From the IMG/VR virus record IMGVR_UViG_3300032167_000030: a stretch of DNA of 64,000 nucleotides; one strand, 5' to 3'. The number at the start of each line of letters is the position of its first letter. Position 1 is the first letter of the stretch. A program made the position numbers and the translations under genes. This DNA is from an uncultured virus (IMG/VR IMGVR_UViG_3300032167_000030). Lineage: Duplodnaviria; Heunggongvirae; Uroviricota; Caudoviricetes. Below are positions 7,734-28,208 of this stretch, piece by piece. The notes below the pieces were generated by a model. That model did no database searches. It was not told the origin of the DNA and saw only the letters and a list, made by a program, of their open reading frames with translations.

Positions 7734-10499
7734 ATGAGTATAAATATCCAACTTGAAAATGGATTACAAAAACTTTCTGGTCAATCAGTAACTAAAAGTA
7801 AGATAATCTCTTCATTAGGTTACACTCCTGCTAAAAATACTGACGTAGATGTTATAAATACTACTATTGATGCGCATAAAAAAGATACTAGTGTTCACTT
7901 TAATGGTAATTATAATGATCTAAAAAATAAACCTAACATTACTGAAGATGGTTCTGGTGAAGTAACTATCGCTGATAAGTCTGGTAATGTTATCTTTAGA
8001 GTAGACGCTCAAGGTGCTCATACTACTAAATTAGAACTTAGTAGTGGAGATATTGATAGACAAATTGATGCTTTAGAGACATCTTTAGCTACTCATAAAG
8101 AAGATACTAGTCTTCATTTTAGTGGTGATTATAACGATCTAGAGAATAAACCTAACATCGTAGAAGATGGTTCTGGTGAAGTTTCTATTACCGATAATGA
8201 TGGTAACATTATCTTTAAAGTAGATGCTCAAGGTGCTCATACTACTAAACTAAGTCTTAGTAGTGGAGACGTTGATAGACAGATTGACGCTTTAGAAACA
8301 TCTTTAGCTACTCATAAAGAAGATACTAGTCTTCATTTTAGTGGAGATTATAACGATCTAGAGAATAAACCTAACATTACCGAAGATGGTTCTGGCGAGG
8401 TTGTAATTGCCGATAATGATGGTAACATTATCTTTAAAGTAGATGCTCAAGGTGCTCATACTACTAAACTAAGTCTTAGTAGTGGAGACGTTGATAGACA
8501 GATTGACGCTTTAGAAACATCTTTAAATGATCATAAAGAGAATGATTTCCACTTCAGTGGTGATTATAACGATCTAGAGAATAAACCTAACATTACCGAA
8601 GATGGTTCTGGTGAGGTTGTAATTGCCGATAACTCTGGTAATGTTATCTTAAAGGTAGACAGTACTGGTCTAGAGACAACTGACATTAAAGCAAAATCTG
8701 TAGTTGTTGAAGGTACTAATGTCACTACTAAGTTTAGTGAACATGAAACCTTAATTAGCAACAAGGTAAATACTGCTGATATAGTTGACAATCTAACTTC
8801 TATTGATACTAATAAGCCTTTAAGTGCTAATCAGGGTAAAGTTCTTAAAGATTTAGTTGATGCAAAAGTAAATACTGCTGATATCATTGATAACTTATCC
8901 TCTACTGATACTAATAAACCTTTAAGTGCTAATCAGGGTAATGTTCTAAAAACTTCAATAGATGAAGTTGATACAGCTTTAGATAATCATAGAGAGAATG
9001 ATTTCCACTTTAGTGGAGATTATAACGATCTAAGTAATAAGCCTAACATTACTGAGGATAACTCTGGTGATGTAGTAATTGCTGATAATTCTGGTAATGT
9101 AATTCTAAGAGTTGATAATTCTGGCCTAGAAACAACTAATGTTAAAGCAAAAACTGTAGTTGTTGATGGTACTGATGTTACTACTAAGTTTAGTGAACAA
9201 GCTACTTTTATAGAAGACTTAAAAAGAAGACTAAATGCATTAGCTGATAGTGATGATACAACTTTAGACCAACTAAGTGAAATTGTTGCATATATTAAGT
9301 CAAATAAGAGTTTAATTGATTCAATTACAACCAGTAAGGTAAATGTTTCTGATATCATTGATAATCTGACTTCTACTGATACTAATAAACCTTTAAGTGC
9401 TAATCAGGGTAAAGTTCTTAGAACATTACTTGATGGGTTATCAACTGCTTTAGATACTCATTCTACTGATGGAAGTATCCACATTACACCTACTGAAAGA
9501 ACTAATTGGGATAACCATATTGCTAATAAGAATAATCCTCATAGTGTTACTAAAGCACAGGTTGGTTTAGGTAATGTAGATAATACATCCGATGCTAACA
9601 AACCTGTTTCAACTGCACAGCAAACAGCTTTAGATGCTCTAAAGGCTGAGTTAAGTGAAACTATTGTTTCTGAATCAAAAGAATGGGTTATTGTTGATAA
9701 TTCTGGTAATGTAATTCTAAGAGTAGATAATTCTGGTCTAGAAACAACTGATATTAAAGCAAAAACTTCAATTACTGTTAATGGTACTGATGTAAAAGTG
9801 GCTCTTGATAGTAAAGTAAATGTTACCGATATTGTTAATAATCTAACATCTACTGATACTAATAAACCTTTAAGTGCTAAACAAGGTAATGTTCTTAAAG
9901 ATTTACTAAGTACTCATGGTAGTGATACTTCTACTCACAGTGATATTCGTACAACTATTACTACTCATACTAGTAATGGAGATATCCATGTTACTAAAGC
10001 AGATAAGACTGCATGGAATGCTAAAGCTGATCAAACAGCTTTAACTACTCATACTGGTAATACTACTGTTCATATTACTGAAGCAGAAAGAACTAAGTGG
10101 AATAAGAACATTACTGATTTAAGTACTCATACTAGTAATGGAGATATCCATGTTACTAAAGCAGATAAGACTGCATGGAATGCTAAAGCTGATCAAACAG
10201 CTTTAACTACTCATACTGGTAATACTACTGTTCATATTACTGCTAATGAGAGAAATACTTGGAATAGTAAATCAGATTTCTCTGGTAACTATAACGATCT
10301 AGATAATGCTCCTAACATTACAGAAGATAATTCTGAGACTTATAATATCGTTGATAAATCTGGTAACATTATTATGACTGTTAATAAAGATGGTATTAAT
10401 ACTACTAATGTTTCATTAAAGGGCGTACCTATTTACAACTATATTGTAGATATTGATTATTCTTTATTATCTTTTGATACTACTGCAATCGTTTCTTAA
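7734..10499 (+). CDS. Long repetitive tail fibre protein
   Basis: Multiple HFSGDYNDLENKPNITEDGSGEV and DNLTSTDTNKPLSANQG repeats; NPHSVTKAQVGLGNVDNTSD fibre motif. Confidence 0.8.
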   Translation: MSINIQLENGLQKLSGQSVTKSKIISSLGYTPAKNTDVDVINTTIDAHKKDTSVHFNGNYNDLKNKPNITEDGSGEVTIADKSGNVIFRVDAQGAHTTKLELSSGDIDRQIDALETSLATHKEDTSLHFSGDYNDLENKPNIVEDGSGEVSITDNDGNIIFKVDAQGAHTTKLSLSSGDVDRQIDALETSLATHKEDTSLHFSGDYNDLENKPNITEDGSGEVVIADNDGNIIFKVDAQGAHTTKLSLSSGDVDRQIDALETSLNDHKENDFHFSGDYNDLENKPNITEDGSGEVVIADNSGNVILKVDSTGLETTDIKAKSVVVEGTNVTTKFSEHETLISNKVNTADIVDNLTSIDTNKPLSANQGKVLKDLVDAKVNTADIIDNLSSTDTNKPLSANQGNVLKTSIDEVDTALDNHRENDFHFSGDYNDLSNKPNITEDNSGDVVIADNSGNVILRVDNSGLETTNVKAKTVVVDGTDVTTKFSEQATFIEDLKRRLNALADSDDTTLDQLSEIVAYIKSNKSLIDSITTSKVNVSDIIDNLTSTDTNKPLSANQGKVLRTLLDGLSTALDTHSTDGSIHITPTERTNWDNHIANKNNPHSVTKAQVGLGNVDNTSDANKPVSTAQQTALDALKAELSETIVSESKEWVIVDNSGNVILRVDNSGLETTDIKAKTSITVNGTDVKVALDSKVNVTDIVNNLTSTDTNKPLSAKQGNVLKDLLSTHGSDTSTHSDIRTTITTHTSNGDIHVTKADKTAWNAKADQTALTTHTGNTTVHITEAERTKWNKNITDLSTHTSNGDIHVTKADKTAWNAKADQTALTTHTGNTTVHITANERNTWNSKSDFSGNYNDLDNAPNITEDNSETYNIVDKSGNIIMTVNKDGINTTNVSLKGVPIYNYIVDIDYSLLSFDTTAIVS

Positions 10500-11629: not shown

Positions 11630-14600
11630 TTGGGGAATAAGATAAAAGCAAAGCAAATTGATCTTAAAAATTTAATTAATGAGCTTGAATTGAATACCAA
11701 TATAGTTGGTCCTGAATCTGCAGAACTTGATAAAGTTGCTGTATTTGCTGATACTACTGGTAAAGTCATTAAAGATGGCGGATATACAATTCAAGAAATT
11801 TTAAACCAAAATGCTTTCAGTGAAATTAAAATCGCTGAAGTAGTAGAAGATAGTGAAAAAGTAGAGATTGTTGAAGATGTTGTTGCTGAAGCTGTCGCCG
11901 ATACTTTAATTCTAGCTGCTGGTCCTAATGTTGTATTAGAACCTGTTGTTGAAAATAAAGCAGTTGTTATTAAAGCAAAAGATACTACTTATGATACTGC
12001 TACTGATAGTGATCTTGGATTAGTTAAAATCGGTTATAAAGAAAACAAGCAAAACTATCCTGTAGAATTAAACTCCGATGATCAAATGTTCGTTAATATA
12101 CCTTGGACTGATACTAAGGTAACTCAAACACCTAAAATTGATAACAGTCAATATCCTTTATTACTAGGTCCAAGCGGTCAAATTACTAAAACTACAGATA
12201 CTACATTTTTTGATAGTGGCGTAACTTTAAATCCTGAAACTAATACAATAACAGCAAATATTTCTGGTTCAGCTTATAAACTTGCAAATAGTAGAACAAT
12301 ATCTTTAGTTGGTGATGTTTCAGGTTCTGGTAGTTTTGATGGTAGTAGTAATCTAACAATTACAACTACAATACCTAATGGTAATTATAATCATACAATA
12401 TCTGACATTAAAGATATTACTGCTACTGCTAACGAATTAAATGTCTTAGATGGTATTACTGCTACTACTAGTGAACTAAATACTTTACATGGTATTAAAG
12501 CAAACGTTAATGAGTTAAACACTCTAAATGGTATTACAGCTACTACTAGTGAACTAAATACTTTACATGGTATTAAAGCAGATGTTAACGAATTAAACGT
12601 CCTAGATGGTATTACTGCTACTACTAAAGAGCTAAACGTCTTAGATGGCATTGAAGTAACTACTGAAGAACTGAACTATCTAGACGGTATTACCTCTAAC
12701 ATACAAGAACAGCTAACCGAAATCAGAAATAGTTCTGGTGTAAGTATAACTTCACATATTGAAAAATTTGATAACCCTCATAGAGTAACTAATAATCAAG
12801 TAGGTTTAGGTAATGTTACTAATGATGCACAGGTTAAGCGTACTGAAATGGGTACTGCTAATGGTGTTGCTACTTTGGATGAAAGAGGTTTAATTCCTTC
12901 CTCTCAATTACCTTCTTACGTTGATGACATAATAGAAGGCTACTTATACAATAGTAAATTCTATAAAGAATCTAGTCATACTACATTAATAGCTGCAGAA
13001 TCTGGTAAGATTTATGTTGATCTCACTTCTAAGAAAACTTATCGTTGGAGTGGTACTGCTTATGCAGTTATTTCTGAAACGTTAGCTTTAGGTGAAACAT
13101 CAGCTACTGCTTACTATGGTGATAAGGGTAAAATTGCTTATGACCATTCTCAATTATCTCATGCTCCTGCTAATGCTGAAAAGAACCAAAATGCATTTAG
13201 CATTGTAAATGTTACTAATGATGGTACAACTATTCCTCTTGATGCTAATCAATCTGAAAGCAGTTTAGGAATAATTGCTGGTAGTAATATCGTTCTTGAA
13301 GCTAATGAAGATACTGATAGTGTTACCATTAGTGCAAATTATTCTAATGCTACTACTAATAGTAATGGTTTAATGTCATCTAGTGATAAGAAAAAACTAG
13401 ATGGAATTGAAGATAGTGCTAACAATTATACACATCCTACTTATAATGCATATACTGGTGTTCCTACAAAAGATGAATCTCCTAAATTTGGTGGATCCTT
13501 TAATGTAACACAACCTGTATCAGACACCCAAGGACATATAACTGCTATGAATAGTAGAACCATTACTATTCCTGATGATACTGCAACACAATCAACTGAT
13601 GGTTTGATGTCAGCTAATGATAAGAAAAAACTAGATGGAATTGCTGAAGGTGCTGACAAAACTACCCATTATAAGAGTAAAAATATTGTTGGTGCTACTA
13701 ATGATACTTCAAATTCTAGTCAAACTAATGGTAATGTTTTCTTAAATCATGTTGAAAATGATAATGAAGTAACTTCTAGTCATAAGATTACTGGCTCTGG
13801 ATCAGTTAGTGTTACTAGTGATACTAATGGTAATATCACTATTAATGGTGCAGAAAGTGGAGATAACGTAAGTTATACTAGTGCTTTAGCATCTGGTACT
13901 CATATTGGTACTATCAATATCAATGGTAATGATACTAAGTTATATGCGCCTATGCCTGATGAAGCTGTTACTTATGATGCAGGTACTGGTTTAAAACTTA
14001 GCGGTACTACTTTTAACCATAAAAATAGTATTACTGCTGGTACTGCACAAGGTGATGCAAACAAGACTTTAACTTTTGGTGGTACTTTTAATATTCCTAC
14101 TGTTACTTATGACGCTCAAGGTCATATTACTGGAAAAGGTACTACTACTATGACCATGCCAGCTAATCCTAATACTGATACTCATTATGAAAGTAAAAAC
14201 GTAATTAGTAATTCTACTACAGCCAATACTAATACTACTAGTGCTTTAACTAATGGTAAAGTTTTCTTAAATCATGTTGAAAATAATGAAGTAACTTCTA
14301 GTCATAAGATTACTGGTTCTGGATCAGTTAGTGTTACTAGTGATACTAATGGTAATATCACTATTAATGGTACTACTGTAAAGTGTACTAATAATTACAC
14401 AGAAGGTATTCATATTGGTACTGTTACTGTTGGTACAACTTCTACTAATCTATATGCTCCTATGGCTGAAGAAGCAGTTGTCTATCAACATCCTACTTAT
14501 ACTGCATATACTGGTGTTCCTACAAAAAATGAATCTCCTAAATTTGGTGGATCTTTTAATGTAACACAACCTGTATCTGATAATCAAGGACATATAACTG

Positions 14601-18874: not shown

Positions 18875-19555
18875 ATGAATAAGAATCATTCTTGTAACAT
18901 ATTAGAAAGATTTTATACTTGGTGTGAAGGTAAAAACTTACTAACTGATACTGGTATTGAAAATCTAGAGACTTTTGGTATTAATTCCAAAATGTATACT
19001 GAAGATTTTACTGATCTAGGTAAGGTTCTAGTATCTAACTATTTCACTAAATGGAATGAAACTATTTCCATTGAAAATCTGACTCAAGAATCCACTGATG
19101 AATTCTGGGATAAGCGTTTAAATGAAATGAATCTAGTCTATAAGCGTAAGGTTATCAATGAAAGTAGTTTTAACTTCGATACTACTTTAGATAATACTGA
19201 TTTAGATATTCAGGCTTACTTTGAATCTATTGATTTCAATCTACCTAGTAAAACTAAACAAGTAGTTTTAGATACTGAGTATCATAACCATTATCTAATG
19301 ATCAATGAAGCAGTTGCTTATGATGAAAATGGATTAAGAATTAACTGTGAACCTTTAAAGATTCTATCTTATAATCCTAAATCTTTCTGTGTTCCTGTTA
19401 GAGAATCTTCTGATTTAAGAGAAGTTACTAAGCAGATTATTCGTGGCTTAAAGTTCTTAAAGGAAGAATGGAATAAAGAAGAAAGATATAGCAATGGTAA
19501 AGTTTTAATGGAAGCTAGATTCCCTGAACTTGGTATTGCTATCAAAATGAACTAA
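18875..19555 (+). CDS. Hypothetical virion protein
   Basis: ORF with its own late-type promoter (18811) and a downstream terminator. Confidence 0.55.
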   Translation: MNKNHSCNILERFYTWCEGKNLLTDTGIENLETFGINSKMYTEDFTDLGKVLVSNYFTKWNETISIENLTQESTDEFWDKRLNEMNLVYKRKVINESSFNFDTTLDNTDLDIQAYFESIDFNLPSKTKQVVLDTEYHNHYLMINEAVAYDENGLRINCEPLKILSYNPKSFCVPVRESSDLREVTKQIIRGLKFLKEEWNKEERYSNGKVLMEARFPELGIAIKMN

Positions 19556-19565
19556 AAAAAAAAAT

Positions 19566-19601
19566 GATTGGATAAAGACTAACTAAAGTCTTTATCCAAT
19601 C
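19566..19601. terminator. Bidirectional terminator closing the orphan array transcript
   Basis: GATTGGATAAAGACT-N6-AGTCTTTATCCAATC flanked by A and T runs. Confidence 0.8.
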
Positions 19602-19605
19602 TTTG

Positions 19606-20310
19606 TTTTACATTAAAGATATATGGTACTAATCACAGACATGATTCATTAGCCGCATATGATACTGTTAAAATCATTGATTCATTAGCAAGTGTGATAC
19701 TATTACACTATATGATTCATTGATTTTATGTGTTACTATCAGTTTTTGTGATTCATTTCATCCCCTTGATACAGGTTAGGGATTCAGTGATTCATTACAT
19801 ATATTTGATACTATTCAAAGCTATGATTCATTCCCATTCAATGATACTATCAATTCAAGTTGATTCATTACATATCTTTGATACTTTAAGACCTCCTATG
19901 ATTCATTAGTAAGTCTTGTTACTAAAAATTAGATTCAGTGATTCATTACATTTCTATGATACTATCTATAGTATGATTCACTATTTCCAATTGTTACTAT
20001 TGCACTACATAGTTCATTTCTGGCTACTGATACTTAATTCACTATATTGATTCATTATAACCATGTGATACTTTTAATACATCTGATTCATTAATTAGCA
20101 TTGTTACTATCGTCTACACTGATTCATTAGAATAAACTGTTACTTTTTTGTAGTATTGATTCATTAATTTCCTCTGTTACTTTTTAATACGTTTAATTCA
20201 TTATGAGAGGATGATACTATAGGATTATATGATTCATTATACCAACATGTTACTTTAAATACATCTGATTCATTGTGTACCTTTGATACTATTCGCCTAC
20301 GTGATTAAAA
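19606..20310 (-). repeat. TIGR-like dual-repeat guide-RNA array 1 (orphan), ~19 units of 35-40 nt (mode 36)
   Basis: Plus-strand TGATTCATT-like repeat at 19642,19678,19713,19749,19788,19824,19861,19899,19939,19974,20010,20048,20084,20120,20157,20194,20230,20266, alternating with TG(A/T)TACT usually 9 nt later; intervening segments mostly unique. Confidence 0.9.
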
Positions 20311-20319
20311 ACTTCTATT

Positions 20320-20724
20320 TTAGTAGTAATCTGATAGATTCTTTTCTCTGTCAAATTGTCTATAGAATGGCATATTTGAAATCTGATGTAATTCAATTTC
20401 CCAATTAGGATGGATTAGTTCAGTTCTTTGTTTAATCTCAGTTATAATCTCTAAACTCTTATCCAATCCTCTCTTAGTATGACTAGTACTAGTTTGATAT
20501 ACATATACATCTTTTCTATTTGGTACTAGTACTGGTTTAGTCTCACCATAATAGAATCTACCTTGATCAATATGAAATTCTATCCAGTAAGAATATACTG
20601 CCTTTTCTTTAGTTATGGTTTCTACTTTTTTAGTTCTACCAAAGAAAGTAGTTTCTATAGTTTCATTAAGGATGTTTATTTCATTATCTGATCTAATATC
20701 AATTTTCCTTAATAGAACATTCAT
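20320..20724 (-). CDS. Hypothetical protein immediately upstream of array 1
   Basis: RBS GGAGG; stop codon ~10 nt before the first repeat. Confidence 0.65.
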   Translation of the reverse strand: MNVLLRKIDIRSDNEINILNETIETTFFGRTKKVETITKEKAVYSYWIEFHIDQGRFYYGETKPVLVPNRKDVYVYQTSTSHTKRGLDKSLEIITEIKQRTELIHPNWEIELHQISNMPFYRQFDREKNLSDYY

Positions 20725-20736
20725 TGTTTTCCTCCA

Positions 20737-21084
20737 TTATTCTTTTTTATGAAACAAGTAACTCAGCATATAAACAGAAATCATAGTTTCATTATTTACC
20801 ATGTAGTCAACTCTTACAAAACCATCATCAAATTCTTTGAAATTTTCATAACAATTATTCTGAATTACATAACTGATATTTCCAATATTCTCATTGTAAT
20901 CAGTTAGATCTTCTAAAAATACTAGATAACCACCATCATCATTATCGATATCTCTATCTTTACCATAGTAGTAATCTAGATTTTTTACTTGTGCTTTAGC
21001 ATCTTCAAAAACCTCATAACCAAATGTTTCAACGATCTCATCAATACGCTTATTTAGTCTCTTAAGAGTTCCTACTTTAATCAT
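20737..21084 (-). CDS. Hypothetical protein
   Basis: ORF with RBS GAGGTG in the same operon. Confidence 0.65.
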   Translation of the reverse strand: MIKVGTLKRLNKRIDEIVETFGYEVFEDAKAQVKNLDYYYGKDRDIDNDDGGYLVFLEDLTDYNENIGNISYVIQNNCYENFKEFDDGFVRVDYMVNNETMISVYMLSYLFHKKE

Positions 21085-21088
21085 TAGA

Positions 21089-21571
21089 TTACACCTCTTT
21101 TAATCTTTTGATAAAATCAATATTTCCAAATTTTCTAATTTTGACACCAGCAATTCTTAACATATTTCTAGATGCAATATAGGTAGCTTTATTTGAATCT
21201 TCATCACTCATATATACAACTTCTTTAATTCCAGCTTGAATAATTGCTTTAGCACATTCATTACATGGAAATAAATCTACATAGATAGTACTACCAGTTA
21301 AATCTGAACTACCACTATTTAAAATAGCATTTAATTCAGCATGAACTACATACATCTGCTTATTATCTAATGGATTTTTTTGATTCTTCATCCAAGGAAA
21401 TACATTATCAGAACAACCCCAAGGAAATCCATTATAACCAGTAGCTAGAATTTTCTTATTCTTTACAATACAAGCTCCAACTTGTCTATCTGGATCTTTA
21501 CTACGTTTAGCTGCTAATAAAGCAACTCCCATAAAGTACTCATCCCATGAAATATAGTTTTTTCGTTTCAT
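21089..21571 (-). CDS. dCMP deaminase
   Basis: SWDEYFM, RSKDP..QVGA, HAELNA and PCNEC zinc motifs. Confidence 0.95.
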   Translation of the reverse strand: MKRKNYISWDEYFMGVALLAAKRSKDPDRQVGACIVKNKKILATGYNGFPWGCSDNVFPWMKNQKNPLDNKQMYVVHAELNAILNSGSSDLTGSTIYVDLFPCNECAKAIIQAGIKEVVYMSDEDSNKATYIASRNMLRIAGVKIRKFGNIDFIKRLKEV

Positions 21572-21798
21572 TTAGTTCTAAATCTCCTCTTTTTCCTCTT
21601 ATTTAGCTCTTCTTGAAAGTATGGATACCAAGGATCATCTTCACCAACTATTTTCATACAATTTTTTATATGAGATATTGTCATATCTTTTAGTTTTATT
21701 TTTACTCCATCTCTAGTTACCCATGTATCACAAGGTACTCCAAATGGAAAATCTTTACTAAATTGTGCATTTATCATGTAATCATCGAATAAACTCAT
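21568..21798 (-). CDS. Hypothetical protein
   Basis: ORF (WVTRDG..IKLKDMTISHIKN); first gene after early-type promoter. Confidence 0.6.
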   Translation of the reverse strand: MSLFDDYMINAQFSKDFPFGVPCDTWVTRDGVKIKLKDMTISHIKNCMKIVGEDDPWYPYFQEELNKRKKRRFRTK

Positions 21799-21883
21799 TT
21801 TTTTATAAATTCCCTTCATTATGAGAATCATACTATAACTAAAATATATAGCTATAGTATGATTTAATACGCTTTACTACTAT

Positions 21884-23350
21884 TTAAAAATCTTGTTCGT
21901 TAGTATCTAACATTTCATCTGAGAAATAGAAACCACAATTCTGTAAGAATGGAGTGAAGGTTCCGCTCATGCCAGGATCACCAGCTGAGCTACTAGTTAG
22001 ACCTATTCTTCCAGGATATGAATAGTGCAGACCTCTATAGGATTTATTAACATCTCTACTACCTTCACCTAGACCTTGGAAACCTCTTTGAGAGAATTTA
22101 AGGCTAGGATTGAAAAGTTCAATAGCATTTACACCACCGAAATATCTTAGCAATTCATTACTACCAATCTTCTTTAATACATACATAGGTGTTAATGTAC
22201 TAAACAACTGCTGTCTATCTTTCATTGTAATTTCTGCTTTATTTAATAGACGATAAGTTGCATTAGACATCTTAATTAGCAAATCATAAAGTAAGTATTC
22301 ATTGATTCTAATTCTTTTATAACGTAGATCCATGTTATCCTGATAGATCAAAGTTTCATAGTTTCTTACCATCCATCTAATGATAGCAAAGATATCTTCC
22401 TTATTCTCTTCCTTCAGTCTTAATGTACTTTGAGTAGAATTATCTAGAATACGTCTAAATGAGATTAAGATATCATTAGCCTTACTTTCATAGTTATTCT
22501 TATTTCTACTAAATACTTTACCCATTTCTAGTTTCCAGAAATCTTGATCCATAATCTGGAACATTTCATTTCCACTAAGAATCTCAATTACATTAGTGAA
22601 GAATTTGAAATATCTTTCAAATAGGTTTTCTTCAATAGCTAGAATAGTTTCATTTTTTAGATTAAACATTACATAACTATTATCACTATTTACTAACTTC
22701 TTATATTCCTTACTTTCATCTAGAACTAAATGAATTTTCTTAGTATTTTCTTTACCTAAGAAATACTCAATAGTTTTAGTATAGCCTCTATCTACAAAGA
22801 AATATAGTAAGTAATTCAGCTTATTCTTAAACAAATCTATTACTTTGATATTTCCATCATATTTATTACCCATCATATCATAGAACTCAATGTCCTTAGT
22901 ACGAATAGTAACACCCATTAGTAGAGTTTTTAATGTTAGACTACCATTGTTATTATAAGTAGCACTATCAATAATCTGATAAATAGGGAAGAACTTAGAA
23001 CCATTTAGAATGAAATAAGTCTTATCAATTAGTTTTGGAAAGAATAGACTCTTTTCAATGATTTCTTCTTCACCAGTTTTACTATCAGAAATCTTGAATT
23101 TGAAATCAATCAATACATGTCTAGATTCAGCAATGTTTACCTGATGTTTTTCATGTTTGATATAATCAGGAAAACTAGATTCATCCTCATTAATAGTAGA
23201 ACCTAGAAATTCTACTCCATTAACTACTTCAAGTGCTTTAAAAATAGAATTGATATGAGTTAATACAGTATCATGTTCTTTCAAATAGATCAAATCTTCA
23301 TTAAATCTTTCTGGATTAGCATCTGAATAGTTCTGTAATAGATTATACAT
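21884..23350 (-). CDS. Phage multisubunit RNA polymerase beta subunit, N-terminal half (probably non-virion RNAP)
   Basis: FPKL..YFILNG..FPIYQI and YRGLHYSYPGRI..SS..DPGMSG align with conserved RpoB regions; early-type promoter; ATG 23350 after AAAGGA. Confidence 0.8.
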   Translation of the reverse strand: MYNLLQNYSDANPERFNEDLIYLKEHDTVLTHINSIFKALEVVNGVEFLGSTINEDESSFPDYIKHEKHQVNIAESRHVLIDFKFKISDSKTGEEEIIEKSLFFPKLIDKTYFILNGSKFFPIYQIIDSATYNNNGSLTLKTLLMGVTIRTKDIEFYDMMGNKYDGNIKVIDLFKNKLNYLLYFFVDRGYTKTIEYFLGKENTKKIHLVLDESKEYKKLVNSDNSYVMFNLKNETILAIEENLFERYFKFFTNVIEILSGNEMFQIMDQDFWKLEMGKVFSRNKNNYESKANDILISFRRILDNSTQSTLRLKEENKEDIFAIIRWMVRNYETLIYQDNMDLRYKRIRINEYLLYDLLIKMSNATYRLLNKAEITMKDRQQLFSTLTPMYVLKKIGSNELLRYFGGVNAIELFNPSLKFSQRGFQGLGEGSRDVNKSYRGLHYSYPGRIGLTSSSAGDPGMSGTFTPFLQNCGFYFSDEMLDTNEQDF

Positions 23351-23585
23351 ATTCTTAACATTTCCTTTCTTAAAATATGATGTATTACTTCTAACTTCTT
23401 TTATTATATATATTTCAAAATTAAGATAAAAATACAATTTTTACATAAAAAAGAAATAAAAGCTAATAACATATTTATAATACATATAGAAATTAGTTTT
23501 TTCATATAAAAAATCTAAAAACTAATTTTTATAAATAAATGTTAAAAAATTTATTAAAAACTAAAAAAAGGATGGTATATAAATT

Positions 23586-23876
23586 ATGACTAAGACTGAT
23601 CTAGTAAAGGCACTCGCTAAGACTCCTATGGAAAACGTTAAGCTAACTCAGAATGAGGCTAACACTGTTGTTAACACTATTCTAGACCTAATCACTGCTG
23701 GTCTACGTGAAGATGGTATTGTCCAGATTACTGGTTTCGGTACTTTTAAGGCACGTGAAGTAGCAGCTCGTGAAGGCCATAATCCTAAGAACCCTGCTGA
23801 AAAGATTCTAATCCCTGCACGTAAGCAGCCTTCCTTCACTTCTGGCGCACAGCTAAAGAAGGATCTAAACGCTTAA
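23586..23876 (+). CDS. hup: HU-family DNA-binding protein
   Basis: MTKTDLV..., GFGTF, R.GHNP, IPA...P.F..G..LK. Confidence 0.95.
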   Translation: MTKTDLVKALAKTPMENVKLTQNEANTVVNTILDLITAGLREDGIVQITGFGTFKAREVAAREGHNPKNPAEKILIPARKQPSFTSGAQLKKDLNA

Positions 23877-23998
23877 TCCTATTTCATTAAAAATCTAAGA
23901 GGTATACTCAATTGAGTATACCTCTTATTTATTCTTTTAATTTTTACGGAACAATACTATAAAGTATTTAAACGTACCGAGTTAAAGGAGTGAAATAT

Positions 23999-25870
23999 AT
24001 GTGGCCCAAATCCAATACTGAAGAATATAAGAAAATTGTCTATGATTTAGTAGGTGATGAGTATACTGTTATAGGTGAATATGTAAATGATAAAACAAAA
24101 ATTAGAATGAAACATAATGTATGTGGTAAAGATGACTGGTATGTAACACCTTGTCATTTTAAAGATAGAGAAAATAAAAAAGGTACTAGATGTCCTAAAT
24201 GTAATGGAAATCTTAAAAGTACTACAGAAAAATTTAAAAAAGAAGTTTATGATTTAGTAGGTAATGAGTATACTGTATTAGGTATTTACAAAAATAACAA
24301 TACTGATATAGATGTAAAACATAATGTATGTGGTACAATTTATCCAATAATTCCTGCTAGTTTTAAAAAAGGAAAAAACAGATGTAAAATATGTTTACAA
24401 AAAGAAAAGGATGAAAAATTTAGAAAAAAAGTATTTGATTTAGTCGGTGATGAATATATTCCAACTACACCTTTTATTAAAGATAATAAAACTATAACGA
24501 TGTTTCATTCAGTATGTGGTCAGACATATGAAACTACACCTCATGCTTTTACTACAGGTGGAGTTAGATGTAAAATATGTTCATCATATACAACTGAAAG
24601 ATATAAGAAAGAAGTATTTGATTTAGTTGGAGATGAATATACTGTTATAGGTGAATATGTAAATGCTGATACTAAAGTAAGAATGAAACACAATATCTGT
24701 GGTAAAGATGATCTATATATAACTCCTCATTGTTTTAAACAAGGTACTAGATGTAAAGATTGTAGAATAAAAGATGCAACCTTAACTCAAGAAGAATTTG
24801 AAAAACAGGTTTTTGATCAAGTTGGAGATGAATATACTGTTATAGGAAAGTATATAAACTCTAATGTAAAAATAAAAATGAGACATAATACTTGTGGAAA
24901 TGAGTATGAAGTATTACCTCATCATTTTACATCAAAAAAGAGTAGATGTGCTGATTGTTCTCTTATTAAAGGTTATAGTAATGGTGAAAAAGAAATCATG
25001 GATTTTATTAAATCCATTTATAATGGTGAAATAACTGAAAACAACAGAACTATTCTAAATGGTAAAGAATTAGATATCTATATTCCAGATAGAAACTTGG
25101 CTATAGAATTTGATGGATTATATTGGCATTGTGAAAAGAATATATCTGATAAGGATTATCATCTTAATAAAACTGTAAACTGTCGTTTACAGAATATTCG
25201 TTTAATTCATATCTTTGAAGATGAATGGAATTTCAAACAGAATATAGTAAAATCTAAGATAAAACATATTCTTGGTTGTAATAACAATACTAAAATTAGA
25301 GCTAGTAAATGTTATATAGAAGAACTAGACTCAACTACTAAGAATCAATTTCTTAATGAAAATCACATTCAAGGTGAAGATAAAGCTAACATAAAACTTG
25401 GTTTATGGTATCCTATTAATGAAGAAGAACATAGACTAGTAGCGGTTATGACATTTTGTAAACCTAGATTTAATAAGAATCATGATTATGAATTATCTAG
25501 ATTTGCTATAGATATAGAATATCAAGTATATGGTGCATTTGATAAATTATTTAAGTATTTTAAAGAAAACTATGAATGGAATAGCATTATAACATATGCT
25601 GATAGAAGATGGTCTATAGGTGGACTATACGAGAATACTGGATTTAAATTAGATGATATAAGTAAACCTAGCTATTTTTATACTAATTTTACAAATAGAG
25701 AGAATAGAGTTAAATTCCAAAAACATAAATTAGAAAAACTGTTTCCAGAGTATTATGATGAAAATTTAACAGAAAAAGAAATTATGGATAAAACAGATTA
25801 TTATAGAATTTGGGATTGTGGAAATTATGTATATACATATATAAAAAATCCTGATAATAATTCTGACTAA
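23999..25870 (+). CDS. Free-standing homing-endonuclease-like protein: five Zn-ribbon repeats plus PD-(D/E)xK/Vsr-like nuclease (Hef-like)
   Basis: Repeats of VGDEYTVIGEY..HxxCG..RCxxC; ELDIYIP..AIEFDGLYWH; C-terminal ELSRF, TYADRRWS, IWDCG. Confidence 0.75.
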   Translation: MWPKSNTEEYKKIVYDLVGDEYTVIGEYVNDKTKIRMKHNVCGKDDWYVTPCHFKDRENKKGTRCPKCNGNLKSTTEKFKKEVYDLVGNEYTVLGIYKNNNTDIDVKHNVCGTIYPIIPASFKKGKNRCKICLQKEKDEKFRKKVFDLVGDEYIPTTPFIKDNKTITMFHSVCGQTYETTPHAFTTGGVRCKICSSYTTERYKKEVFDLVGDEYTVIGEYVNADTKVRMKHNICGKDDLYITPHCFKQGTRCKDCRIKDATLTQEEFEKQVFDQVGDEYTVIGKYINSNVKIKMRHNTCGNEYEVLPHHFTSKKSRCADCSLIKGYSNGEKEIMDFIKSIYNGEITENNRTILNGKELDIYIPDRNLAIEFDGLYWHCEKNISDKDYHLNKTVNCRLQNIRLIHIFEDEWNFKQNIVKSKIKHILGCNNNTKIRASKCYIEELDSTTKNQFLNENHIQGEDKANIKLGLWYPINEEEHRLVAVMTFCKPRFNKNHDYELSRFAIDIEYQVYGAFDKLFKYFKENYEWNSIITYADRRWSIGGLYENTGFKLDDISKPSYFYTNFTNRENRVKFQKHKLEKLFPEYYDENLTEKEIMDKTDYYRIWDCGNYVYTYIKNPDNNSD

Positions 25871-25909
25871 TTCATTAAAAATTTCCTTTCTTTATACATT
25901 TTCTTAACA

Positions 25910-25950
25910 AAAAAAGAGGATAGACTTTAAATAAGTCTATCCTCTTTTTT
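25910..25950. terminator. Bidirectional terminator between the endonuclease and array 2
   Basis: AAAAAAGAGGATAGACTT-N5-AAGTCTATCCTCTTTTTT. Confidence 0.85.
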
Positions 25951-26448
25951 TCATTATGCGTATCTGATACTATAAACTACTTTGATTCATTGAAATAATA
26001 TGATACTTTTGAAGAGCTTGATTCATTTTTAAAAGTTGATACTATTTTTAATATTGATTCATTTCGGGTTATTGATACTATAGGTCGTCGTGATTTTTTG
26101 TTATATAGATGAAATTCTAAAATCCTCCTTTGATTTTTTTGAATAATTTCATTCAGTGATACTGATACTATATTTGGGTATGATTCATTTATTCCTGTTC
26201 TGTTACTATAATCTTCATTGATTCACTTATATCAACTGATACTATATCGCAGTATGGTTCATTTAGATGACCTTGATACTAAATTTCTGATGATGATTCA
26301 TTTACAGCTAATGATACTATAATGCTCATTGATTCATTTATTCACCATGTTACGAATGTCTATAAGTGATTCATTATCATTTTTGTGATACTGTTTTTAT
26401 GGATGATTCATTATTGATGTATGATACTATATTAAGTAGTGATTAAAA
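25951..26448 (-). repeat. TIGR-like dual-repeat guide-RNA array 2 (8+4 units), directly downstream of the Tas-like gene
   Basis: Same repeats as array 1: TGATTCATT-like at 25983,26019,26055,26181,26219,26255,26294,26330,26367,26404, alternating with TG(A/T)TACT; ~55-nt interruption at 26096-26148. Confidence 0.9.
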
Positions 26449-26475
26449 CAATTAAAGAAATTACATCAAATCCTC

Positions 26476-27747
26476 TTACTTCAAACCAAGAATATTTTTA
26501 TTAGGTGCTTCCATGATATGAACATGACCAAGATGAACTTCAACAAAGGGTCTAGGAGGCTTAACCCCATTCTCATACTCATACCAGACTTCGAACAAGT
26601 GAGAAAGGAAGATCTTAACAGCATAACGCTTAGCCATAGCAATCATATGAGCCATAGGAAGTTTACCAGATTCATAAGTAGCTCTAGTCTTCACATTCTG
26701 AATGTTCTTTTCTTCCAATGCAAGCTTAGCTGCTTCAGCAAAACCACCAGCTTCATTCTTATCAATATAGAACTTCAGCTTTTCAGCATAAAGACCACCA
26801 TAATAAGACTTATAGACAGGCTTACCATTTTCATAAATAGTATTACCATCCTTATCTTTTTTAGTACCAGAAAGCTTTTGAAAACTTTCACCGCACTTCC
26901 AACAAAGAACTCTGAACTTAGGATTATAGTCAAGCTTCACACCCTTCTTACGAGGAGCACGATGACCTTCCCAACCTGCATATCTCCAAATAGAACCTGC
27001 AGTTTGACACTTAGAGATATCAATATAAGAAAGCAAACCTGCAGCTAGAACAGGACCAATACCCTTAGTAGCAATAAGCCATTGACCCATTTTATCATGT
27101 TCAACATAATCCTTCAGCCACTTAACAATAATTCCCTCAATTTCCTTGAATCCAGCATTAACATATGCAAAGGAAATATTTTTTGGATTATTATTGTTAT
27201 TAGTTGCTACACTAGTTCCACTATTATCAAGCTGGAACTGACGGTTACCACCAGCAATTCTAAATGCCTGAATATCATAATACTGGCTTACAAGACTAGT
27301 TACTTCAGATCTAGAAGTTACAGGATTATTCTTAACGGTCTTATTAAAACCTTTTTCAAAGATGTCCTTGAAATCAACAGTTTCCTTTTCTTTTTCTTTC
27401 TTTTCATTAGTAGAAGATTCTTTTTCTTCTACAGATTCATTCATTTCAAGTTCTTCATTAATCTCAATTTCATCATCTACATCATTAATGAAAACATTCA
27501 TTTCAATTTCGCTATCACTGATGAGTTCAGTAGGAATACCAGTTTGTTCAGCAATAGAAATAAGTACAGAACAAATATCTTCACCATTTCCATTATTTAC
27601 TAAGTGTTTAAACAGGCATTTCTCAAAGTTTGCGAGTTTCGTTTTAATTCTATAAGGTTTGCTCAAACTATTGTTTAAGCCCTCGATCATATCTCTATAA
27701 TCTCTAGCAATCTCCTTATAAGAACTCTTATCATTAGTGTTTTTCAT
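26476..27747 (-). CDS. Nop/IS110-C-terminal-domain RNA-binding protein (TIGR-associated, TasA-like) with uncharacterised N-terminal extension
   Basis: Coiled coil (YYDIQAFRI..NR), KGIGPVLAAGLL, SIWRYAG, YNPKFR, YY..Y...K, HMIAMAKRYAVKIFLSHL; no recognisable DEDD RuvC or HNH domain; adjacent 36-nt array. Confidence 0.85.
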   Translation of the reverse strand: MKNTNDKSSYKEIARDYRDMIEGLNNSLSKPYRIKTKLANFEKCLFKHLVNNGNGEDICSVLISIAEQTGIPTELISDSEIEMNVFINDVDDEIEINEELEMNESVEEKESSTNEKKEKEKETVDFKDIFEKGFNKTVKNNPVTSRSEVTSLVSQYYDIQAFRIAGGNRQFQLDNSGTSVATNNNNNPKNISFAYVNAGFKEIEGIIVKWLKDYVEHDKMGQWLIATKGIGPVLAAGLLSYIDISKCQTAGSIWRYAGWEGHRAPRKKGVKLDYNPKFRVLCWKCGESFQKLSGTKKDKDGNTIYENGKPVYKSYYGGLYAEKLKFYIDKNEAGGFAEAAKLALEEKNIQNVKTRATYESGKLPMAHMIAMAKRYAVKIFLSHLFEVWYEYENGVKPPRPFVEVHLGHVHIMEAPNKNILGLK

Positions 27748-27805
27748 TGTTACTGTCTCCTTTGTGTTGTAATGATTAGTAATGTTTAGTCATTATGATA
27801 CTTAT

Positions 27806-28039
27806 TTATCTAGATATGATAGAAAAACTATCATGATCTTGCAAAGCTAAAGTGGAACCATTATCCCAATTCATATGAATTTGACCGATATCATCTACAA
27901 AAGTAACATCTCCTTCAAGACCATATGGCATCTGATCTTCACCTACCATTTTATATAGCCGAATTCTAGTTCCTTTAGGATAAGCTTTTTTTAACAACTC
28001 AACCTTTTGCTTGCTATTAAAGTCTCTTGTACACATCAT
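27806..28039 (-). CDS. DUF4314-like small protein
   Basis: YPKGTRIRL..M......G.V..VDDIGQIHM.WDNGS.LAL; ATG 28039 after AAAGGAG. Confidence 0.8.
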   Translation of the reverse strand: MMCTRDFNSKQKVELLKKAYPKGTRIRLYKMVGEDQMPYGLEGDVTFVDDIGQIHMNWDNGSTLALQDHDSFSIISR

Positions 28040-28208
28040 TTTTAATTCACTCCTTTTTGATTTATTTTTCTTTAGTATACTATCTTTAAAATATATACTT
28101 AAAAATATTAAAAATACGTTTCTCATTATATGTCCATAAACGTTAAAAATACATTTAAACATATATCATAATAACGATACAAATACTAAAATAAAGGAGA
28201 TTATCACA

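Follow-up and report, generated by a model that had tools for sequence, protein, structure and literature searches.

TIGR-Tas systems, the dual-repeat anatomy of their arrays and the TasA class with its repressor activity have been described (PMC12045711; 10.64898/2026.09.09.750476). In the dual-repeat TIGR-TasA arrangement (Faure et al. 2025, Science, PMC12045711; Xu et al. 2026), two repeats alternate with spacers of 9 nt in units of 36 nt, the first and the last edge repeat are truncated, a terminator follows, and the protein partner is a nuclease-free Nop-domain Tas. In the structure of TasR, two base pairs join the ends of the tigRNA, for which the authors report support by covariation (PMC12045711). 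Published arrays are located upstream or downstream of tas, on its flanks or inside it (PMC12045711; 10.64898/2026.09.09.750476; PMC13421893; 10.64898/2026.08.11.744272), and the published surveys scanned 5 kb or up to 10 kb on each side of tas. The available text of PMC12045711, of 10.64898/2026.09.09.750476 and of a 2025 review holds no mention of orphan, multiple or trans-served TIGR arrays, and a literature search for orphan TIGR arrays yielded no relevant paper; the supplements and the web resource of the preprint may nevertheless contain some that lie no more than 10 kb from tas. The description of TIGR-Tas dates from 2025.

A distant cas locus can serve orphan or isolated CRISPR arrays in trans, of which 10.64898/2026.04.27.721218 gives an example. 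The locus described here resembles them in having one repeat type in several dispersed arrays, a single effector locus and spacers that vary between relatives. It differs in that each guide has two spacers, one per DNA strand, that the protein belongs to another family, and that the arrays reside in a jumbo phage of the virulent type rather than in a cell. To our knowledge, no acquisition genes are known for TIGR-Tas, in contrast to CRISPR. The archaeal box C/D sRNAs with Nop5 share with our locus a Nop-domain protein, two guide segments and short box motifs, and their genes, like the arrays here, are dispersed away from the protein gene (PMC12045711). These sRNAs form K-turns and guide the 2'-O-methylation of RNA together with fibrillarin and L7Ae (PMC12045711), whereas the present system has no fibrillarin or L7Ae partner, its units of 36 nt are arranged in tandem, and the target shown for its family is DNA. 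The IS110/IS621 bridge-RNA recombinases (PDB 8wt9, 9t56), whose RNA-binding-domain fold is related to that of the modelled Tas, work with one bridge RNA for each element, carry a DEDD recombinase domain and have no arrays, whereas the Tas protein here is without the catalytic domain.

The window, i.e. the whole stretch of 64,000 nucleotides that was analysed, is DNA of an uncultured virus (IMG/VR IMGVR_UViG_3300032167_000030). In reverse complement it corresponds to positions 160169-224169 of an IMG/VR record, hereafter G001, which comprises 319,626 bp with 28.6% G+C and is complete according to CheckV; one 1-base indel (~1500-2500) separates the two, which were otherwise identical in the sampled 50-mers. 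The phage sequence is present in 11 runs labelled as faeces metagenome, all from a single year and possibly from a single campaign; none of these runs is RNA. A contig from the read runs (four runs examined) covers 19300-20328 with 0 differences and represents the same strain. Joints between the two arrays seen in the read runs have sides of 30 letters; they look like assembly cross-links at the repeats. As a guess at the host, the ligase was looked up in a protein atlas, where it occurs in viral and mixed clusters only.

The array at 19611-20310, termed array 1, is a real and canonical TIGR array and, judged from its sequence, very probably a functional one. We put the probability at roughly 0.8 that it is a working dual-repeat array of a TIGR-TasA system, for which a mechanism of transcription, loading in trans and DNA binding is proposed below. 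It adds a new case to a known system, arranged in a way that the literature does not spell out. The features of the window on which the following account draws are:

19556-19601, minus strand: intrinsic terminator after array 1, 15-bp stem and T-run
19611-20310, minus strand: TIGR array 1, 19 units with a truncated edge repeat at each end
20320-23350, minus strand: co-oriented gene row ending in array 1, from RNA polymerase beta to two ORFs annotated without function
23403-23415, minus strand: early-promoter-like sequence AAATATATATAAT between the divergent HU and RNA polymerase beta genes
25907-25946, minus strand: terminator hairpin and T-run after array 2b, RNAfold -21.5 kcal/mol
25951-26099, minus strand: array 2b, 4 units with its own 5'-truncated start AAAAAATCA
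26148-26448, minus strand: array 2a, 8 units, starting 27 nt past the tas stop codon and ending in the truncated edge AATGAA
26476-27747, minus strand: tas gene, 423 aa, TasA-like by NCBIfam NF052498 and fold
28088-28100, minus strand: promoter-like sequence AAGTATATATTTT before the DUF4314-tas gene pair

The first-pass annotation had described array 1 as about 19 units with the repeats, the strand and the 5' start of a second, Tas-linked array. Parsing of the units confirmed this description and moved the low end from 19606 to 19611. The units follow each other head-to-tail in the order edge repeat AATGAATCA, spacer A, loop repeat WWAGTAWCA and spacer B. Both repeats are 9 nt long and have box-like motifs in common, namely a G as the fourth base and WCA as the last three; the spacers mostly have 9 nt, and the unit is exactly 36 nt long in 10 of 19 cases (range 35-40 nt). 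Among the internal edge repeats, 15 of 18 are exact and the remaining three deviate by one or two bases, a conservation equal to that of the Tas-adjacent arrays (8 of 10 exact). The 5' start is a 5'-truncated edge, TTTTAATCA (20310-20302), and the 3' end a 3'-truncated edge, AATG (19614-19611). Alternating repeats, spacers of ~9 nt, a unit of ~36 nt and truncated ends with a terminator, the features that define dual-repeat TIGR arrays, are thus all present; adjacency to tas is absent. In contrast to the published TIGR-TasA loci, array 1 is found six genes and 6.2 kb from tas as the 3' tail of an unrelated row of genes, with 6,166 nt, comprising six ORFs and array 2, between its start and the tas stop codon.

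The repeats are far more frequent than composition would provide. Read on the plus strand, the window holds 23 copies of TGATTCATT, compared with 1.9 ± 1.5 in 100 shuffles; all 23 copies are on the same strand, 15 of them in 19642-20274 and 8 in 25983-26412. A scan with the composite repeat pattern, as proposed in the first-pass annotation, gave 23 matches in the window with 0.02 expected, and the ~31 guides it had estimated correspond to the 19, 8 and 4 units counted. The spacers of array 1 do differ from those of array 2, with 0 common spacer pairs at up to four differences in 18.

Some units of array 1 stand apart. Units 11 (19947-19908, 40 nt) and 15 (19796-19758, 39 nt) are over-long and irregular, and in both spacer A starts with CTGAATC and is edge-repeat-like; they may contain a slipped or partly duplicated edge and may yield no usable guides. 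Units 2 (20274-20239) and 7 (20092-20057) have near-identical spacers A, GATGTATTT and GATGTATTA, and loosely similar spacers B, a resemblance that suggests either that one unit was duplicated and the copies then diverged or that the two targets are related.

The array next to tas had been regarded as one array and proved to be two arrays placed end to end. The first edge of array 2a (26448-26440) is TTTTAATCA, identical to the start of array 1, and ~50 nt of other sequence separate array 2a from array 2b. In the closest relative, G002, the positional counterpart of array 2b is a separate array at the 3' end of a large HNH-type gene, ~17 kb away from tas and its own array; the double make-up in the window arises because tas and its array are shifted relative to this HNH-side array. 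The terminator of array 2b is convergent with the ORF at 23990-25870 and was not listed by a simple terminator scan; the only match in an Rfam search of the region, below threshold, fell on it. The ORF itself (626 aa), flanked by the HU gene on one side and by array 2b on the other, matches phage HNH/homing-endonuclease families (phrog_559, 2.2e-167); its counterpart in G002 is 73% identical.

The identification of the product of 26476-27747 as a Tas (Nop) protein was substantiated by profile, sequence and fold. The protein matched NCBIfam NF052498 with 152.6 bits (1.4e-44; cut-off 100), and phmmer retrieved PDB 9mty (TasR, 2.6e-12) and TasH (5.5e-7). With an AlphaFold (AF2) model calculated from 42 homologues (mean pLDDT 83), Foldseek returned TasR and TasH chains at all of ranks 1-10 (E 1.5e-6 to 1e-5), followed by the IS621 and ISCro4 recombinases (E 3e-3 to 1e-2). 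Residues ~146-420 constitute the coiled-coil and Nop part. Residues 1-145 were modelled as helices and disordered linker devoid of beta-strands, with a three-helix domain at 7-77 and a disordered acidic linker at 82-121; this additional N-terminal domain distinguishes the protein from the published TIGR-TasA, and most of its homologues, of 270-350 aa, are without an N-terminal extension. The Pfam search retrieved no family at E ≤ 0.01, and neither Pfam nor the modelled N-terminus revealed an HNH or RuvC nuclease domain; the protein was therefore placed in the nuclease-free TasA class.

Processing of the pre-tigRNA by SpTasH depends on the pair Y289/H296 in a C-terminal loop (PMC13421893). H296 aligns with His408 of the present Tas, a residue nearly invariant in the family. 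Y289 aligns with Phe401, and self-processing by this Tas therefore cannot be assumed. In a profile search (hmmsearch) of all six-frame ORFs, exactly one Tas ORF was detected in each of four complete genomes, namely G001 and the relatives G002, G003 and G006; the proposal of a single effector holds for the whole 320-kb genome. A tblastn search of the protein against 50,697 phage records gave one weak match, in a Microcystis phage with 27.5% identity, and a near-identity search with 19000-28000 against the same records gave none. A search for related loci with peptide patterns derived from Tas, which were of low complexity, produced 87 matches, 0 of which were confirmed.

Pairing of the edge halves, a further feature of dual-repeat arrays, was examined by comparing the upstream with the downstream edge copy of each of 196 units. 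Double changes occurred almost only at the pairs 7-2' and 6-3' (upstream versus downstream edge). All six restore Watson-Crick pairs (U-A to C-G four times, A-U to G-C twice), although these six events may represent fewer independent mutations, as array 1 and the syntenic G002 array Z may share one. In permutations of the downstream copies, the mean was 0.16 and the maximum 3, and 0 of 5000 reached six. When the same positions were paired within one repeat copy, the 196 units showed no compensatory changes. One event is located in array 1, where unit 9 (~20018-19974) carries a C-G pair between the edges AATGAACTA and AGTGAATCA; a second event within the window is found in array 2a. Covarying paired edge ends are a trait shared with the described TIGR-TasA (PMC12045711). 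The compensatory changes across units point to selection on an RNA, and they would be difficult to account for if the units were not produced, and put to use, as RNAs. Changes of this kind allow the function of an array to be judged from sequence alone.

The position of array 1 is conserved in G002 with other contents. The local gene order is kept, with identities of 86% for RNA polymerase beta, 64% for the dCMP deaminase, 43% for the ORF starting at 20737 and 69% for that at 20320; next to these come the array, the same terminator and, at 79-90% identity, the convergent genes. By this synteny, the G002 array is the positional equivalent of array 1. It has 12 parsed units instead of 19, and the best pair of units agrees at 11 of 18 positions, a similarity of which ~2 cases are expected in 228 comparisons. 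Across 412 units from 16 contigs, only two similar guides are found between different phages: unit 13 of array 1 resembles a unit of a distal array in G006 with one difference, and one guide pair of G003 and G006 has three differences. The remaining sharing of guides is confined to near-identical contigs. In G002, the same guide is present in the distal and in the Tas-adjacent array. The first-pass annotation had named spacers that are invariant across distant relatives as a sign of a structural or origin repeat. That case is ruled out by the comparison, in which the repeats are fixed and the spacers differ. Syntenic arrays with replaced spacers and duplicate guides within one genome offer material for studying the turnover of spacers.

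The first-pass annotation had also supposed that more arrays exist elsewhere in the genome, and one does. A looser scan of the whole genome, reaching beyond the window, turned up one more canonical array, the third of the genome, with 3 units at G001 266953-267069, 69 kb from tas, which adds up to 34 units together with the 31 in the window. A scan of IMG/VR with the exact pattern found the same repeats at 32 loci on 17 contigs. The arrays of the tas-bearing relatives are distributed as follows:

G002, 299 kb, tas 64% identical: arrays adjacent to tas and at 10.4 and 17.3 kb
G003, 247 kb, tas present: arrays adjacent and at 16, 55, 122 and 151 kb (73 units)
G006, 264 kb, tas present: arrays adjacent and at 9.5 kb
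G007, 210 kb, tas present: array 111 kb from tas
G008, 141 kb, tas present: array 10 kb from tas
G009 and G010, 159 and 104 kb, tas present: adjacent array only (exact pattern)
G011, 31-kb fragment, tas present: array 9 kb from tas

With G001 included, seven of the nine tas-bearing records have an array at 6-151 kb from tas. G004 and G005, both incomplete records, carry arrays and have no tas on the available piece. In the genomes studied, arrays not adjacent to tas encode between 22 of 34 and 59 of 73 guides, and scans of 5-10 kb around tas miss much of the guide set of a phage. An array 69 kb off in the same genome, and up to 151 kb off in relatives, likewise departs from the published TIGR-TasA. 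At 85402-87064, G003 has an exceptionally long, interrupted array, from which 35 units were parsed; a segment of ~670 bp is duplicated within it, and the guides of the two copies differ at 2 of 18 positions.

Array 1 forms the tail of the gene row that consists of RNA polymerase beta, a small ORF (21568-21831), the dCMP deaminase (21089-21571; Pfam PF00383, 4.8e-28) and the ORFs 20737-21084 and 20320-20724. It starts 9 nt past the stop codon of the last of them, and no terminator-like site was found by a terminator scan of the minus strand from 23400 to 19601. The layout given in the first-pass annotation, a 3' tail of the dCMP deaminase row that ends at a terminator, was thereby corroborated. 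The terminator hairpin (19601-19566, RNAfold -22.2 kcal/mol) is common to array 1 and the convergent ORF 18875-19555. The ORF at 21884-23437, with a likely start at ATG 23350, encodes the N-terminal part of a non-virion RNA polymerase beta. It is 40% identical to the RNA polymerase beta of the Bacillus phages AR9 and PBS1, and the phage is therefore regarded as one with AR9/PBS1-type transcription machinery.

In AR9, the consensus of early promoters is AAATATATATTAT-(6N)-G (PMC5312081), from which AAATATATATAAT deviates by one mismatch. The succession of HU gene, promoter and RNA polymerase beta gene (21884-23876) equals that of the AR9 genes g103-g105, where the AR9 record annotates the promoter as early. 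The 13-mer AAGTATATATTTT before the DUF4314-tas pair occurs four times in the 320-kb genome, one copy being 118 nt before the third array, and two arrays of relatives lie directly behind the early-promoter motif TATATATTATAAT. Sigma-70-like sites in the region (49) are below the mean of the shuffles (61 ± 6). The promoter motifs and the AR9 layout lend indirect support to the early transcripts proposed in the first-pass annotation; on this reasoning, tas and the arrays would be expressed early. Early promoters, if this reading is true, would mean action at the start of infection and narrow the possible roles to host shut-off or the exclusion of rivals.

For array 1, we infer that it is transcribed early, processed, loaded onto Tas in trans and used to repress targets, along the following lines. 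The array would be transcribed as the tail of the RNA polymerase beta-dCMP deaminase row, probably from an AR9-type early promoter, and the transcript would stop at the hairpin terminator. Cuts within the edge repeats would release RNAs of ~36 nt, composed of (A)AUCA, spacer A, AUAGUAUCA, spacer B and AAUG(A), with each RNA presumably held together at its ends by two base pairs. The sole Tas, encoded 6.2 kb away, would bind these RNAs in trans, and the same protein would be served by its own adjacent array and by the third array at 69 kb. Most likely, the complex binds matching double-stranded DNA with one spacer per strand. Binding rather than cutting is proposed because Tas is without a nuclease domain; the bound complex would thus block the transcription or replication of a host or of a rival mobile element.

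Targets were sought on this basis. The published geometry of cleavage, with 8-nt 3' overhangs and a C-5 rule (PMC12045711), implies a target in which spacer A is followed, after a gap of 0-2, by spacer B in reverse complement. Searches of the phage's own genome, performed with both possible spacer arrangements and gaps of 0-2, gave 0 exact, 2 one-mismatch and 33 two-mismatch sites, compared with 1-3 and 22-29 of the latter two classes in three controls. In the arrangement deduced from that geometry, the 196 guides had 0 exact and 22 one-mismatch sites in G001 and four relatives, compared with 1 and 18 for the reversed control; neither search rose above its controls. The guide conserved between G001 and G006 matched 104 loci in IMG/VR, 75 of them with a gap of 3 nt and the others scattered; the 3-nt-gap loci are mostly one replicated sequence of the ~57-kb phage G012. 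None of the remaining guides among the 412 matches G012 at up to one mismatch in the same arrangement, and the agreement is attributed to chance. In GTDB genomes, the same guide pattern occurs at no fewer than 120 loci. Among the matches listed, a Streptococcus cluster is a single orthologous site at which the gap base mismatches the guide, and the 15 fuller matches come from taxa unrelated to one another and were rejected as noise. Complementarity between spacers A and B and runs shared by them were seen in 5.1% and 6.1% of units, not significantly different from shuffled sequences (3.4 ± 1.3% and 4.0 ± 1.5%). The spacers have 31-34% G+C, the phage genomes 28-31%; the value fits AT-rich targets and proves nothing.

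The most serious competitor of this reading is that array 1 is a relic, copied from the Tas-linked array during a rearrangement and neither expressed nor used. Its distance of 6.2 kb from tas, the want of a promoter of its own in a sigma-70-type scan, the rearrangement of the region between G001 and G002, the two irregular units and the fruitless target searches would all suit such a remnant. Against it, the repeats are kept as well as those beside tas, and the truncated start, the truncated end and the terminator are intact. The slot is conserved in G002 with all spacers different, a compensatory pair is present within the array, and distal arrays recur in 7 of 9 records; we regard a relic as improbable. 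If the array is expressed, its RNAs might still serve something other than the phage's own Tas, either as a sponge for the Tas of a rival or as a structured 3' tail that regulates how stable the upstream mRNA is. Many phages have exactly the same repeats, cross-loading during co-infection is conceivable, and array 1 is indeed located in a 3' UTR. The diversity of the spacers and their normal length and composition, like those of the Tas-adjacent arrays, nevertheless speak for guides, as does the guide common to a distal and a Tas-adjacent array of G002, and a separate role is not required by any of the data. We consider such a use very unlikely, and less probable than a relic.

Least credible, and very improbable in our judgement, is an action of the repeats as DNA, i.e. 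as origin iterons, a packaging site or protein-binding sites, with no RNA precursor. Regular short repeats in an AT-rich non-coding stretch, with convergent genes on either side, would invite this interpretation. However, exactly these repeats also stand behind tas, every copy lies on the same strand with a terminator as the boundary, the arrays of relatives lie directly behind early-promoter motifs, and the spacers are not conserved. Moreover, the covariation couples the 3' half of one copy with the 5' half of the next, which makes sense only in an RNA unit.

A wider reading is put forward tentatively and is itself rather doubtful: gut jumbo phages of a clade with AR9/PBS1-type RNA polymerase might possess a genome-wide guide network, in which one nuclease-free TasA is supplied by 2-5 arrays with 34-73 guides, placed at the 3' ends of early gene rows or behind early promoters of their own, at up to 151 kb from tas, as semi-independent cassettes. 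If true, the DNA of host or rivals could be silenced from the first minutes of infection. The cassettes would keep their slots while units are exchanged and all spacers replaced, with the flanking proteins still 64-90% identical. This pattern, if true, would imply a novel and fairly fast route for the renewal of paired spacers.

Other features of the genome were recorded in passing. The dCMP deaminase and the AR9-like layout raise the question of uracil-containing DNA as in AR9/PBS1. Tandem in-frame repeats occur at 7875-10266 and 12415-12693 (219 bp x 3.6, 162 bp x 1.9 and 78 bp x 2.5). The only tRNA genes of the genome are eight located at G001 ~289043-291408, specific for Gln, Ser (two genes), Leu, Ile-tat, Gly, Asn and Lys.
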